Numbered from the stretch's first letter, positions 3,533 through 60,552 are shown. The stretch: 64,000 nt of DNA from an uncultured beta proteobacterium (GCA_903864505.1 CAIPGC010000103.1:97-64096); one strand, 5' to 3'. Translations and numbers: made by a program. The notes: a model not told the origin generated them from the letters alone.

Positions 3533-4306
3533 ATGAAACACCTATTCGCCGCTCTCTTTTTGATAGCCTCACTCACTGGATGCGCGACCGCAGACTACAA
3601 AGCCTATGCGGAAGCACAGAGCAATGTGGCAGCAGCCAAAGCCAGCGCGGAAACGGCCCGGTACAACGCTCTCTCCAAGATCGCCGAAACGGGGACCGAC
3701 GCCAGCAAGATCGCCGCCGTGATGGCGCTGGCCCTGGGTAACCAGGGAGCAGGGCAGGTGCAGCAGATTGCCGCACCGCCGCAGAATGAGGCGCTGCAGT
3801 GGGCCAGCATCCTGGTGCCGGGCATCACCAACATCGCGGGCATGGCGCTCAACGCGAAAGTAGCCATCACCAACGCAGAGCACAGCGCCCGTGTGGCCGA
3901 GTCCACGAACGCGGCGTTTGTTGGCATAGCCAGCAAGATTCAAGCGCCAGTGACGGTAGTTCCATCAGCACCTGTCACCGTAGTCCCGCAAGCAAACGTG
4001 TCAACAGTTACCACAACCACTACGACTGACAACCATGCTACTTCCACGGACAACCACGCATCTACTGTTTCAACAGCTACAACGTCAACGTCAACTGCTA
4101 ACCCTGTCAACACCACATCGACCAGCATCGGCGGCGCAGGAGTCATCGGCAACGGAACCTACTCAACCCAGGCCAACCCCGTTACCACCACAGCCAACCC
4201 GGTGACGACTACAACGACGGCCAACCCGGTTACCACCACCACAACGACGAACCCACCAGGAAAGACGTGTGCGACCAGTGCAGCGGGCATTGTGAACTGC
4301 ATATGA
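3533..4306 (+). CDS. Lipoprotein with Thr-rich ANPV(T)n tail
   Basis: Signal peptide with lipobox LTG-C17; four ANPV repeats. Confidence 0.85.
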   Translation: MKHLFAALFLIASLTGCATADYKAYAEAQSNVAAAKASAETARYNALSKIAETGTDASKIAAVMALALGNQGAGQVQQIAAPPQNEALQWASILVPGITNIAGMALNAKVAITNAEHSARVAESTNAAFVGIASKIQAPVTVVPSAPVTVVPQANVSTVTTTTTTDNHATSTDNHASTVSTATTSTSTANPVNTTSTSIGGAGVIGNGTYSTQANPVTTTANPVTTTTTANPVTTTTTTNPPGKTCATSAAGIVNCI

Positions 4307-51380: not shown

Positions 51381-51773
51381 ATGGCAGACAAACTCGATTC
51401 AATCCTCGACGACCTCCTGGAGCGCTGGCACCACTTCAAATCCGGCTACCAGTTGGCCAAGGGCTACGGATCCAGCGATGCCACGTGCCGAGACTTCAGC
51501 ACACCTACCCATTGGGACTGGCAAAACGGCGCAATGGACAAGCATGAAGAGAAAGTTCGCATGCAAGGCGTCGACCGTGCATTGACCCGGGTTCCAAACA
51601 CTCCAGAGCCCTGGAACACGGTACTGCAGTTCGAAGCCAGAAACCTCGCATCGGCAGCCATGGTGTGGACATCACCCAGACTCCCAAAGGGAGAAGAGCT
51701 AGAGATTCTGCGCATGGAGGCCAGGACTAGGGCGATTCTGGAATTGCAGCGGGAAGGGTGCATGTCGCGATGA
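51381..51773 (+). CDS. Putative late antiterminator (Q position)
   Basis: Last nin-region gene, immediately followed by a promoter plus terminator. Called by synteny only. Confidence 0.55.
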   Translation: MADKLDSILDDLLERWHHFKSGYQLAKGYGSSDATCRDFSTPTHWDWQNGAMDKHEEKVRMQGVDRALTRVPNTPEPWNTVLQFEARNLASAAMVWTSPRLPKGEELEILRMEARTRAILELQREGCMSR

Positions 51774-51776
51774 TTG

Positions 51777-51804
51777 TTGACGCGCTATGGAATTGTGGTA
51801 AATT
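51777..51804 (+). promoter_or_regulatory. Late promoter (pR'-like)
   Basis: TTGACG-16-TAAATT with extended -10 TG. Confidence 0.7.
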
Positions 51805-51862
51805 CCGTTTCGGTCGCACTCGCGCGCCTGAAAATAGCGAGTGACGGCAAGAAATATCGCAA

Positions 51863-51888
51863 AGCAACCCTAATCCGGTTGCTTTTTT
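51863..51888 (+). terminator. tR'-like terminator
   Basis: AGCAACC-loop-GGTTGCT followed by a T run. Confidence 0.8.
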
Positions 51889-51899
51889 CATTTCAAAAC

Positions 51900-52200
51900 C
51901 CGCTCAGCTAACTGACCAGCCGCATTCTCAAGCGCGGACTCTGGGAGGAACCGAGTGGCCGTAGCTGGCTTCCGGCGAAGCAGCCAGCACCAAGAAGGCC
52001 AGCGGCATAGCTCCTAACTCCTTGGGACGCCGCTGGCCGCTTGGACCAAACCAGGACCCGGAAATACCGCTAAACCTGATAGCGCCGGCCGCGGGTAAAC
52101 GGCTGGGTACATCCGCGTAGGCGCCACACGCGCAATCAGGAGGGGCGACAACAGCAGCAACCCAGCCGCGAAAGCGGTAAGCCTGATGGGTTTCGCACAA
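51900..52200 (+). ncRNA. Candidate structured RNA upstream of terS
   Basis: Several nested helices, including a perfect 10-bp stem and a GAAA tetraloop; no credible ORF. Confidence 0.55.
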
Positions 52201-52214
52201 GAAAGAGGTAAGCC

Positions 52215-52826
52215 ATGGCAACCACAAAGAAACCAGTGAGAAAGCCTGCGATACCCAAGAAATCAGTCAAAAAGCCTGTTATTGCTCAAAAAGTAAGCAA
52301 AACAGGCGCGCGTACAGCCGTAAAGAAGAAGGTTTCAAGGCCAGCACCCATTCAGGCGATTCCACAGCCAAAGAAGCAATTGGCAGCGCGAGTCGTGTAC
52401 TCAGAGAAGATCGTTGACGCGATTTGCACTCGGATCGCTCAAGGCGAAAGCCTGATCAAGATCTGCAAAGACACTGGAATGCCGAACCGAACGACGTTCA
52501 TGCGTTGGCTGCATGAAGGAACGCATGATGGGCTTCACGACAAATACGCGCGAGCCCGGGAATCGCAAGCCGATTTCTACGCTGAAGAGATCATTCAAAT
52601 AGCTGACACGCCCATTATTGGATCGAAGACAAAGATCAATGAGAAGGGCGAACTTGAGGTAACTAAGGGCGACATGATCGAACATCGCCGCCTGCAAGTT
52701 GATGCGCGCAAGTGGTACGCAAGCAAGGTAGCGCCGAAGAAGTACGGCGACAAGCTGGCAGTTGGCCAGGCCGATGACCTTCTACCGCTGGTGACCGTCA
52801 AGGATCTGACAGGGCGCAAAGATTGA
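52215..52826 (+). CDS. terS: Terminase small subunit
   Basis: IC.RIAQGESL..IC...GMP...TFMRW...YARARE...LQVDARKWYASK..PKKYGD. Confidence 0.9.
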   Translation: MATTKKPVRKPAIPKKSVKKPVIAQKVSKTGARTAVKKKVSRPAPIQAIPQPKKQLAARVVYSEKIVDAICTRIAQGESLIKICKDTGMPNRTTFMRWLHEGTHDGLHDKYARARESQADFYAEEIIQIADTPIIGSKTKINEKGELEVTKGDMIEHRRLQVDARKWYASKVAPKKYGDKLAVGQADDLLPLVTVKDLTGRKD

Positions 52827-52920: not shown

Positions 52921-54375
52921 ATGAGCCAAGGTTTCGAGTACGCCTACAAGCCGCAAGGCCCGGTACTTGAAGAATACATCCTGAGCGAATCGCAGCGGAC
53001 GATGATCATGGGTCCATTGGGATCCGGAAAGACAAACGCGAGTTGCTGGAAAGGTTTCAGGATCATTTGCGCGCAGGATCCTGACAGCCAGGGGATTCGA
53101 AAGAGCCGCGGCGTAGCGATCCGGAACACTTACCCGGATCTTTTTGGGACAACGATCAAGGATTGGCTCGACATGTTCGAGCCGCTGGGCAAGTTCAAGC
53201 AAGGCGGGATGGAGCCGCCGACCCATCACCTTCTGTTCAAGCTGGACGATGGGACCACGGTCGACGCTGAAATGGTGTTCTTGGCGTTGGACCGGGAAGA
53301 CCACATCAAGAAGCTGCGAGGGCTGCAAGCGACATTTGGGTGGCTGAACGAGGTCAAGGAACTGTCGTTCAGCGTGATCCAAATGCTGGACTTGCGCATG
53401 GGGCGCTATCCGAAGGACGTTCGGCCGACTTGGTACGGGATCTTTGGTGACACGAACGCACCAGACACCGACCATTTCTATTACCGCATGGCCGAAGAGG
53501 TGAAGCCTGAAGGCTGGAAGTTCCTCAAGCAACCAGGCGGAGTGAAGCGAAAGAACATTCAGGCGCCATGGGAAGTGAACCCGGACGCTGAAAACATCAA
53601 GAACTTGCCGCTGAACTATTACGCAAATGGCGTGCAAGGCAAGTCGGATGCTTGGGTAACGGTGAATCTTGCCAATGAATACGGCTATGTGAGCGACGGC
53701 AAGCCGGTGTACCCGGACTATCACGACCCAACGCATTGCCGAGAGTTTGAATTGGTTGAAGGTCTGCCAATCCACATCGGACTGGACTTTGGTTTGACGC
53801 CGGCCGCACAGATTGGCCAGCAGATGGTGAATGGCCAGTGGCGAATTCGGCACGAGCTGGTGACCACTGACACAGGCGTCATTCGCTTTGCCAATGAGTT
53901 GAAGCGGTTCATTGCCACGAAGTTGCGAGGCTTTGTGATCGCCACGATTACCGGTGACCCGGCAGGCGATCAGCGTCAGGCTGGAGACAACGAGGAAAGA
54001 ACGGTGTTCCAACTGTTGGACGCCAATGGCATCAAGGCAGTGCCTGCGCCATTCAACAACGATTTCACCATCAGGACGGAAGCAGTTGCCACACCGCTGC
54101 GCCGAATGATCGATGGCGAACCAGGATTCTTGCTTCACCCTGATTGCAAGGTGACACGCAAGGGCATGCAAGGTGGCTACAAGTTCCGTCGCGTCAAAGT
54201 GAGCGGAGATGAGAGGTACATGGACATGCCAGTAAAGAACGACTGCTCTCACCCGTGCGAGGCTGGCCAATACCTACTTTTGGGTGCTGGCGAGGGCGTT
54301 GCTGTGGTGCAAGGCTCTACCGTAGAACGCACCAAAGATGCTGAAGAGTACCGCAAGAGGCGAGGTTTAGCATGA
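52921..54375 (+). CDS. terL: Terminase large subunit
   Basis: Walker A GPLGSGKT, WLNE, nuclease GLDFG, GDPAG, SHPCEA. Confidence 0.92.
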   Translation: MSQGFEYAYKPQGPVLEEYILSESQRTMIMGPLGSGKTNASCWKGFRIICAQDPDSQGIRKSRGVAIRNTYPDLFGTTIKDWLDMFEPLGKFKQGGMEPPTHHLLFKLDDGTTVDAEMVFLALDREDHIKKLRGLQATFGWLNEVKELSFSVIQMLDLRMGRYPKDVRPTWYGIFGDTNAPDTDHFYYRMAEEVKPEGWKFLKQPGGVKRKNIQAPWEVNPDAENIKNLPLNYYANGVQGKSDAWVTVNLANEYGYVSDGKPVYPDYHDPTHCREFELVEGLPIHIGLDFGLTPAAQIGQQMVNGQWRIRHELVTTDTGVIRFANELKRFIATKLRGFVIATITGDPAGDQRQAGDNEERTVFQLLDANGIKAVPAPFNNDFTIRTEAVATPLRRMIDGEPGFLLHPDCKVTRKGMQGGYKFRRVKVSGDERYMDMPVKNDCSHPCEAGQYLLLGAGEGVAVVQGSTVERTKDAEEYRKRRGLA

Positions 54376-60493: not shown

Positions 60494-60512
60494 TTTCTTG
60501 ACAAGTCCCATG

Positions 60513-60537
60513 GAACCCGCATCAGGCGGGTTTTTTC
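60513..60537 (+). terminator. Rho-independent terminator
   Basis: AACCCGC-ATCAG-GCGGGTT followed by a T run. Confidence 0.75.
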
Positions 60538-60552
60538 ATTTCTGGAGCACCC

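Follow-up and report, generated by a model that had tools for sequence, protein, structure and literature searches.

Two structured RNA families, one with two pseudoknots, between the late terminator and the small terminase gene of Burkholderiales phages

Introduction

Late-gene control in temperate phages is poorly known outside the E. coli models. The locus described here raises the question of what is encoded in the 441 nt that lie in total between the open reading frame (ORF) of a 130-aa protein and the small terminase gene terS in the DNA of an uncultured beta proteobacterium (GCA_903864505.1, CAIPGC010000103.1:97-64096; the whole analyzed stretch of 64,000 nucleotides is called the window below). 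An earlier note on this DNA had proposed that positions 51900-52200 fold into a single multi-domain RNA of ~300 nt, with more helices than a terminator needs, and had offered a novel phage ncRNA, a ribozyme, an antitermination element and a packaging-associated RNA as candidates. The region does encode a real, multi-domain structured RNA that the terminator does not account for and that is absent from Rfam, but what had been taken as one RNA is composed of two autonomous modules, A and B, each of which is found separately elsewhere. Each module defines a new RNA family that covaries strongly, and one of the two contains two pseudoknots; as conserved RNA structures both are almost certainly genuine.

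Gene Order and Transcription Signals

The promoter-like site, the terminator and terS flank the region just as the earlier note had described, and terL is located after terS (Table 1). The order of regulator gene, promoter, short leader, intrinsic terminator and late genes is shared by the window and by relatives L003, L005, L006, L119, L088, and L111, and the upstream neighbors of the 130-aa gene encode NinB and a DUF968/HNH-like protein, a pair typical of the lambdoid nin region. Equivalent promoters are located at the matching place in L005, L006, L119, and L088, a hairpin followed by an A-rich linker occupies the position between promoter and terminator in every relative, and the terminators of relatives carry the U-run-CAUUUC signature of T1. 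The start of module A lies 13 nt past the T1 tail in the window, and the terS ATG begins 23 nt past the last paired base of P4, leaving 22 nt between. Since both modules are positioned downstream of the promoter and of the terminator, this layout suggests that they are probably expressed only when T1 is read through. Another intrinsic terminator with the same tail as T1 is located inside the late operon, so that the distal late genes need processive read-through.

Table 1. Features at the entry to the late operon in the window, numbered from its first nucleotide
Feature	Position	Strand	Remarks
130-aa protein, Q position	51381-51773	+	no Pfam or PHROG family
Candidate sigma-70-type late promoter	51777-51804	+	TTGACG-16-TAAATT, TG ahead of -10; from sequence
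Leader hairpin	51813-51846	+	core CACTCGC/GCGAGTG, then A-rich stretch; read from sequence
Intrinsic terminator T1 (tR'-like)	51861-51895	+	9-bp stem 51861-51885, then UUUUUUCAUUUC
Module A, five-helix conserved RNA	51908-52047	+	model R2 115 bits, covariation, RNAalifold consensus
Module B, doubly pseudoknotted conserved RNA	52070-52201	+	model R1 96 bits, covariation
P1	52075-80/52135-40	+	closes three-way junction
P2	52085-91/52100-06	+	conserved loop CGGGTAAA 52092-99
P3	52114-17/52129-32	+	
PK2	CGCC 52122-25 with GGCG 52144-47	+	P3 loop with 3' segment; AACAGCA linker after
PK1	C52152-G52185, A52153-T52184, G52154-C52183, C52155-G52181	+	C52182 bulged
P4	52159-64/52187-92	+	
P4a	52165-69/52174-78	+	GAAA loop
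Shine-Dalgarno AAGAGG and terS ATG	52201-52217	+	from sequence
terS, small terminase (Sf6-like), first late/packaging gene	52215-52826	+	Pfam PF20901 Sf6_terminase E 2.9e-39; phrog_1482 E 5e-45
terL	52921-54375		after terS
Intrinsic terminator within late operon	60512-60544	+	tail UUUUUUCAUUUC as in T1

Judging from gene order, the 130-aa protein is presumably a late-gene regulator that promotes read-through. It has no match in Pfam or PHROG and no similarity to known Q proteins, and its AlphaFold model of four helices (pLDDT 81) found no match in a fold search against the PDB at E<=0.001. Because no Q similarity is detectable in this protein, gene order is what the read-through step rests on. 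The protein has 22 homologues, one of them in Rhodoferax koreense, and the homologue contigs carry the 130-aa gene, a gap of 270-630 nt and then a small terminase gene. The gaps of these relatives share the promoter, the short hairpin leader, the terminator with its U-run-CAUUUC tail and a block of similarity adjacent to terS. Protein-based searching for further loci succeeded only with an alignment of the family as query, which led to two Variovorax genome loci and 25 viral loci, an earlier search having given no match. At the nucleotide level, a search of GenBank phages with the window and three module-B variants gave no match, and comparison among 61 relatives yielded one marginal match of 44 nt alone (E 9.4e-4).

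Known RNA families and coding sequence do not account for the interval. The whole 64-kb window gave 0 matches to Rfam 15 at the gathering score, and 51700-52300 gave, at E<10, unrelated matches alone (E 4.5-9.4). In 17 member loci searched in the same database, tRNAs were the sole matches, and thus the covariance-model search of the window and these loci bears out the earlier note in treating the RNA as one that no known family explains. An ARAGORN scan of the window for tRNA and tmRNA found 0 genes, and a tRNA-like reading was rejected on the results of ARAGORN and Rfam. A coding reading was likewise rejected, since member lengths are spread evenly over the residues modulo 3 (10/13/13); a 99-aa ORF on the minus strand across the region has no family match in Pfam or PHROG, and stop-free frames are uninformative at the GC content of the region. 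Neither module is accounted for by a coding signal.

Architecture and Covariation of Module B

Module B is a three-way junction (P1-P3) followed by a hairpin (P4/P4a), and two pseudoknots tie the two parts together (Table 1). This architecture was read from the alignment, from per-sequence folding, from a column read-out and from a mutual-information scan, and the R1 covariance model used to collect members was built from 10 seeds. Among members, P1 is formed by such different strands as CCUGAU/AUCAGG, CUUGA/UCAAG, CCAGC/GCUGG, CUGGC/GCCAG, GCAAGC/GCUUGC, and GCUCC/GGAGC. The P2 loop usually reads C/A-GGG-Y-AAA, and P2 is followed by a pyrimidine-rich J2/3 and then by the P3 hairpin, whereupon the 3' strand of P1 leads into the PK2 segment and a conserved (A/C)GAAC-N-GC(A) linker. 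P4 consists of CCCA/UGGG with one to two variable outer pairs and surrounds P4a, which is capped by GNRA or UUCG loops, and the 3' internal loop of P4 is conserved as (U)AAG-Y-C-N'-GA. PK1 pairs C-N-G-C of the linker with G-Y-C-N'-G of this internal loop, the Y being bulged.

All four sets of helices that the earlier note had drawn are present in the window sequence at the coordinates it gave, among them AACCCA (52159-64)/TGGGTT (52187-92) around GCCGC-GAAA-GCGG(T) at 52165-78, which corresponds to P4 and P4a. Its multibranch domain stands in part: CCTGAT (52075-80)/ATCAGG (52135-40) is the conserved P1, but GCGCC/GGCGC is not the conserved pairing, its place being taken by P2, P3 and PK2, the last of which joins CGCC (52122-25) to GGCG (52144-47).

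Compensatory changes, the check that the earlier note had looked to, are found in both modules across related phage contigs, and in module B every helix has them. For module B, 95.1% of the cells are paired against 70.2% in shuffles and 28-41% with slid partners (A4, 36 distinct sequences), and the covariation score of 0.51 compares with 0.13 in shuffles, 0/500 of which reach it, and with 0.03-0.10 for slid partners; the alignments behind the helix counts were fitted to the models, PK1 being the exception that was not modelled, so that the pairing of the modelled helices is inflated. All seven P2 pairs (7/7) and all five PK2 pairs (5/5) have changed on both sides; in P4 this holds for both outer pairs and one inner pair, and in P4a for both variable pairs. 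The pairs with the highest mutual information coincide exactly with the proposed helices, and in L016-type members the same measure identifies a CACUC/GAGUG helix as the P3-loop pseudoknot PK2. At the N/N' position of PK1, 15 sequences have C-G, 11 have G-C and 7 have A-U, the 2 exceptions being alignment slips, and since PK1 lies outside the search model, its covariation cannot be explained by model fitting. This was replicated in a scan of viral contigs that specified GAAC-N-GC, CCCAGC, and GAUGGG and left N' free, in which N/N' was a Watson-Crick pair (C-G, G-C, or A-U) in 18/18 new distinct members, one of which swaps the otherwise invariant CCCA/UGGG for ACCA/UGGU. Two further tertiary pairings were tried and rejected as not consistent across members, one between the GGG of the P2 loop and the pyrimidine-rich J2/3 and the other between the tail CAAGG and J2/3.

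The earlier note had read the helix density as more than a terminator requires and had named a folding energy not beyond that of shuffled controls as a result that would speak against the RNA. The energy is indeed not beyond the shuffles and lends the density no statistical support: against dinucleotide shuffles, the plus strand of 51890-52214 has z = -1.29 (11/100 shuffles as good), module A (51908-52047) z = -1.91 (6/200), and module B (52070-52201) z = -1.03 (27/200). Given that this DNA is GC-rich and that the modules and the whole of 51890-52214 fall within the shuffles, thermodynamic significance was set aside as evidence either way. It has been considered that the region is a site acting at the level of DNA, such as a pac, regulator-binding or recombination site, or a set of functionless GC-rich hairpins arisen by chance, and the adjacency to terS together with single-sequence folding energies within the range of shuffles would suit this idea. 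However, the compensatory changes are of the Watson-Crick and G-U-tolerant kind, and together with GNRA and UUCG tetraloops and two pseudoknots they are signatures of RNA, as is a strand-specific G-U pair at P4a that is kept in 31/33 distinct sequences. Moreover, module B is independent of the terminase family, and the minus strand of 51890-52214 folds no better than shuffles (z = -0.18) and gives no folding signal, which leaves a DNA-level or chance origin highly improbable.

Module A

The 5' hairpin of module A pairs CCAG and CCGC (51916-23) with GCGG (51934-37) and CTGG (51941-44). The remaining helices, all of which the earlier note had placed in its first two domains and all of which are present, are GCTGGC (51964-69)/GCCAGC (51983-88), CCAAG (51990-94)/CTTGG (52040-44), GGCCAGCGGC (51997-52006)/GCCGCTGGCC (52029-38), and TCCTAA (52012-17)/TTGGGA (52022-27). 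An RNAalifold consensus of eight sequences returned five helices, namely the hairpins of those two domains and the 5' hairpin, in which CCGC/GCGG covaries to CCGA/UCGG and CUGC/GCAG. On alignment A8, 90.4% of the cells are paired against 69.5% in shuffles and 27-44% in slid controls, the first value again being inflated by fitting to the model, and 28/32 pairs have changed on both sides, which was matched by 0/500 shuffles.

Members of module A were found with nhmmer, using 51893-52069 as query, in L007 (Rhodoferax koreense), L031, L014, L011, L015, and L024, and by motif search also in L012, L015, and L019. Compared with the score in the window, the R2 covariance model gives 49-142 bits in 8 other loci and 22-42 bits in 3 more; 12 loci lie at E<0.01, and two are marginal (E 0.12 and 0.87). 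All of these 12-14 loci had been reached through the 130-aa protein encoded just upstream, and R2 found module A in none of the module-B loci without this protein. Module A is followed by module B in the window, L014, L031, and L026, and module A occurs without module B in L007, L012, L015, and L019. Downstream of a module A that stands alone there is often a UUGUCUCC tract with an intrinsic terminator after it (L007, L011, L012, L015, and L019). Module A may be an accessory leader domain limited to phages with the 130-aa family.

A Possible Role as a Cis-Acting Leader and Its Alternatives

We propose that modules A and B would form the 5' leader of the late (packaging, structural) transcript of a prophage. 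Transcription would start at the candidate promoter (51777-51804) and normally stop at T1, and polymerase would enter the modules only once it had become terminator-resistant, presumably via the 130-aa protein. Module B would then fold as a compact three-way junction whose P3 loop joins the 3' linker (PK2), and PK1 would in turn link this segment to the internal loop within P4. The resulting structured 5' untranslated element, ~20-45 nt ahead of the first late start codon, would set the stability of the late mRNA and/or the access of ribosomes to it, possibly upon binding of a factor or small ligand, and in related phages module B appears to be joined to one of two different outputs, a ribosome-binding site that follows within ~18-45 nt or another terminator. 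We hold to this reading of module B, a cis leader setting stability and/or translation of the first late gene, tentatively and with somewhat less than even confidence.

The position of module B relative to its neighbors is what points to cis action. About two thirds of members have an ATG ~15-45 nt past P4, mostly with a Shine-Dalgarno-like sequence before it, and the genes that follow encode small terminases, which represent at least five families in PHROG (1482, 1889, 51, 1206, and 641), and also HTH-type proteins, terL and portal genes coming next. Such a narrow spacing to the start codon despite unrelated downstream genes argues for an action in cis on the 5' untranslated region. In L102, L130, L061, and L132, an intrinsic terminator is found instead, 13-20 nt past P4, and that the conserved domain can precede a ribosome-binding site in some phages and a terminator in others argues in the same direction. 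Pairing that would sequester the Shine-Dalgarno sequence or form an anti-terminator was sought for module B, and none was consistent. On the upstream side, the 130-aa family is present at 18/40 module-B matches (17 upstream, 1 downstream, the latter in L111), a count that includes distant homologues at loci picked up by pattern. Other module-B loci have zinc-finger proteins that weakly match PHROGs annotated as "antitermination protein Q-like", and in all the proteins encoded upstream of the module are of at least three unrelated kinds.

In at least 11 loci module B comes shortly after a strong intrinsic terminator, the T run of which starts 14-42 nt ahead of the module, with promoters further upstream. 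This placement would favor a processing element or self-cleaving ribozyme, whose cut would split the leader and terminator fragment from the late mRNA and leave the message with a structured, nuclease-resistant 5' end. In line with this, tRNA genes, whose transcripts are RNase P substrates and would mark a cut likewise, occupy the leader slot in place of or together with module B in L010, L019, L025, L031, L111, and L113, and in L132 a tRNA in the same slot ends 12 nt before module B. A compact, doubly pseudoknotted fold with many invariant unpaired nucleotides (the GGGYAAA loop, the GAAC-N-GC linker and AAG-Y-C-N-GAUGGG) is also typical of small ribozymes, and PK1 with its bulged pyrimidine and the preceding GAAC presumably resembles helix P4 of RNase P RNA. 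Against a ribozyme, module B has no Rfam match at E<10 to hammerhead, twister, twister-sister, pistol, hatchet, HDV, glmS, or RNase P RNA, its helix order is unlike the nested double pseudoknot of HDV, and no cleavage site can be inferred from the sequence, so that we consider this explanation unlikely. Two particular topologies were rejected: a hammerhead core, as CUGAUGG (52183-89) departs from CUGANGA and is not conserved (UCGGAUGG in relatives), and that of HDV, from which the helix order of module B differs.

Some loci break the usual arrangement. L363 carries two copies of module B, and in L111 the module precedes both a small ORF and the homologue of the 130-aa protein, which itself keeps a promoter and a terminator before terS. 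These two loci and the tRNAs that share the slot are as compatible with an RNA gene in its own right or a signal for processing as with a cis regulator. One or more stable ncRNAs might accordingly be released from the late read-through transcript, as the tRNAs of this slot would be, and act in trans on host or phage targets, for instance by serving as decoys, by sponging up a protein or by countering host defence; the two modules are found apart and are combined with different regulators and terminases, two terminators bracket module B in L102, L130, L061, and L132, and a terminator follows module A in the five loci listed above. For a free-standing gene, however, the short and narrow distance to the start codon in about two thirds of members is unexpected, and in the window no separate promoter can be made out in the interval from T1 to the modules. 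A trans-acting RNA is thus regarded as distinctly unlikely. A packaging RNA of the phi29 pRNA type was also tried and rejected, given that there is no Rfam match and that the neighboring terS, terL and portal genes are ordinary and of several families; the idea is unsupported because no pRNA match exists and the module is tied to the leader position and not to a terminase family.

Comparison with Known Systems

The layout resembles the Q/pR'/tR' late switch of lambda-type phages in having a regulator gene, a sigma-70-type promoter, a hairpin leader, a strong terminator and late genes. The late switch of lambda and Stx phages yields a short leader RNA, namely 6S RNA, and StxS in Stx phages, which also carry tRNAs after tR' (PMC7547250), and the possibility of tRNA genes between the terminator and the first late gene is thus common to both settings. 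On the other hand, the 130-aa protein resembles the Q families of the lambda, 21 and 82 type in neither sequence nor fold, the modules likewise have no homologue in the lambda-type system, a conserved structured RNA is missing from lambda downstream of tR' and ahead of its late genes, and the late operon is headed by terS in the window and by lysis genes in the lambda-type system.

Structured RNAs near the head of long operons are known from processive antitermination, and it may be asked whether the nascent RNA of the modules, alone or with the 130-aa protein, binds RNA polymerase like put, EAR, conAn2, or canT RNA and carries it through T2 and the internal terminators. The modules head a late operon of roughly 20 kb that has an internal terminator at 60512-60534, a terminator directly follows module A or B in at least nine loci, and module A occurs only alongside the 130-aa family. 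In the conAn system of Gram-positive conjugative plasmids, the ConAn1 protein and the large conAn2 RNA at the head of the operon are both needed for processive read-through (PMC8191782), and the order of a small protein gene, a large structured RNA and a long operon with internal terminators is echoed in the window, Tn916 canT and the EAR of B. subtilis being further systems for comparison; the window differs in that a promoter and a terminator part the protein gene from the RNA, and in belonging to Burkholderiales phages as opposed to Firmicutes plasmids. The cis-acting put RNA of HK022 (putL/putR) suppresses termination by binding to the beta' zinc-binding domain of RNA polymerase. It is ~70 nt with two stem-loops and is located upstream of the terminators that it suppresses (PMC9378689). 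The modules have in common with it that they are structured, phage-encoded RNAs near the 5' end of a long operon and could act on the polymerase that transcribes them. Neither module is like it in form or place, however: the modules measure 130-140 nt, with five helices in the 140 nt of module A and a three-way junction and two pseudoknots in the 132 nt of module B, they contain multi-helix junctions and pseudoknots, they lie downstream of T1, and no sequence similarity to put is seen. Antitermination is further weakened because both modules stand past the first terminator in the window and most relatives and so would be of no help in passing T1; it would be redundant should polymerase have been modified by a Q-like factor before leaving the promoter, and module B is found with unrelated upstream proteins. 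We therefore judge it very unlikely.

With respect to riboswitches and protein-binding leaders, the pseudoknotted domain, the invariant junction nucleotides and the ribosome-binding site or terminator downstream are alike, but no mutually exclusive pairing was identified in module B and it matches no Rfam riboswitch. A catalogue based on IMG/VR lists more than 10,000 predicted phage RNA structures (DNAVirus_N), some of them upstream of terminase genes (PMC10690425). As it draws on the same kind of contigs and includes such structures upstream of terminase genes, modules A and B may be among its entries, and the text of the catalogue describes no motif with the architecture of either module (PMC10690425).

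It is possible, though we entertain it with more doubt than conviction, that module B represents a new functional RNA class with a biochemical activity of its own. It could be a ribozyme trimming the late transcript just after the terminator, or a ligand- or polymerase-binding switch that licenses the late genes of Burkholderiales phages, which could act independently of terminase and regulator families. Taken together, the two modules and the fold-orphan 130-aa protein could amount to a previously undescribed protein-plus-RNA system of late control. Should the RNA turn out to cleave, to sense a ligand or to bind polymerase, the short list of such RNAs would gain a new class; if it merely stabilizes the leader, it would serve as an annotation marker for late-operon starts and offer a testable case of module swapping of leaders among phages. 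In either case, two well-defined RNA families with models at the level of base pairs have been gained, and an orphan protein family is now tied to the Q position.

Distribution among Phages and Hosts

The R1 model has 40 matches in A4 and 21 more in A10, and module B is carried by more than 50 distinct viral-contig sequences, in a collection that is biased by the patterns used for searching. In 118 viral loci picked by a degenerate pattern of the P4 hairpin, R1 found ~30 full-length matches, most of them in loci without a detectable copy of the 130-aa protein. A similar pattern applied to bulk metagenome contigs gave 2 weak R1 matches in 100 loci, the rest being chance, and this contrast indicates that module B is enriched in phage DNA and that R1 is specific. 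Most members have module B without module A. Among genomes of the host order, R1 matches 3/401, a count obtained, as in some of the other genome searches, through a coarse prefilter. In many uncultured phages the start of the late operon is marked by these modules. At least two hosts in culture have them at this place as well, module B being present in Variovorax sp. ZT5P49 (L008) and module A in Rhodoferax koreense (L007).

Upstream protein family and late control region

The 130-aa protein encoded just upstream of the late promoter belongs to a family for which comparison with Pfam and PHROG gave no match. Its AlphaFold model is a confident four-helix structure with no neighbour in the PDB, and its gene is always followed directly by the promoter-hairpin-terminator unit and the late genes. 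These proteins are candidate antiterminators or regulators of the late genes and would form a new family. The interval between late promoter and terminator carries a hairpin and then an A-rich stretch in every relative (L003, L005, L006, L010, L012, L015, L019, L024, L029, L030, L033, and L111), and this pair may be the recognition site, on RNA or DNA, of the upstream regulator. A second strong intrinsic terminator, sharing the UUUUUUCAUUUC tail with the late terminator at 51861-51895, lies within the late operon itself; its presence implies that the distal late genes are reached by processive read-through.

Variable content of the leader

In seven relatives (L010, L019, L025, L031, L111, L113, and L132), the leader slot, running from the late terminator to the first late gene, holds tRNA genes; in L132 only 12 nt separate the tRNA end from the start of module B, the doubly pseudoknotted RNA. 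One viral contig, L363, carries module B twice, with ~870 nt between the copies, and in one of them ACCA/UGGU replaces the otherwise invariant CCCA/UGGG helix of hairpin P4. Module A, the conserved five-helix RNA, is followed in L007, L010, L015, L019, and L025 by a conserved, anti-Shine-Dalgarno-like tract, (U)UGUCUCC(C/U); a terminator and the following start codon lie 3′ of this tract.

A putative third element that recurs in these leaders is a long hairpin that starts with CACCGCUCG, ends with GGCACCUAUUC, and lies directly 5′ of the Shine-Dalgarno sequence. Besides L119 and L130, it occurs in L025, L029, L030, and L033, 3′ of their terminators, and the loci sharing it have different upstream regulators. 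The leader of L111 contains an additional structured element, a ~125-nt long inverted repeat (AAGTTTATGATGGAATTTAACTAAGTGGTG ... CACCACTTAGTTAAGTTTCAC) around a GC-rich core.

Positions of features in the window and in related loci
Feature	Sequence	Position	Strand	Location
130-aa protein	window	51381-51773		
Hairpin, then A-rich stretch	window	51813-51855		between late promoter and terminator
Strong intrinsic terminator	window	60512-60544		within late operon
tRNA gene	L111	8786-8859	-	leader slot
tRNA gene	L113	3570-3643		leader slot
tRNA gene	L132	1135-1206	-	leader slot
Module B, two copies	L363	6002-6160; 7033-7173	both -	
Putative third leader element	L119	~4110-4225 (oriented extract, not locus coordinates)		
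Putative third leader element	L130	~4165-4250 (oriented extract, not locus coordinates)		
Inverted repeat	L111	1605-1730 (oriented extract)		between tRNA and module B
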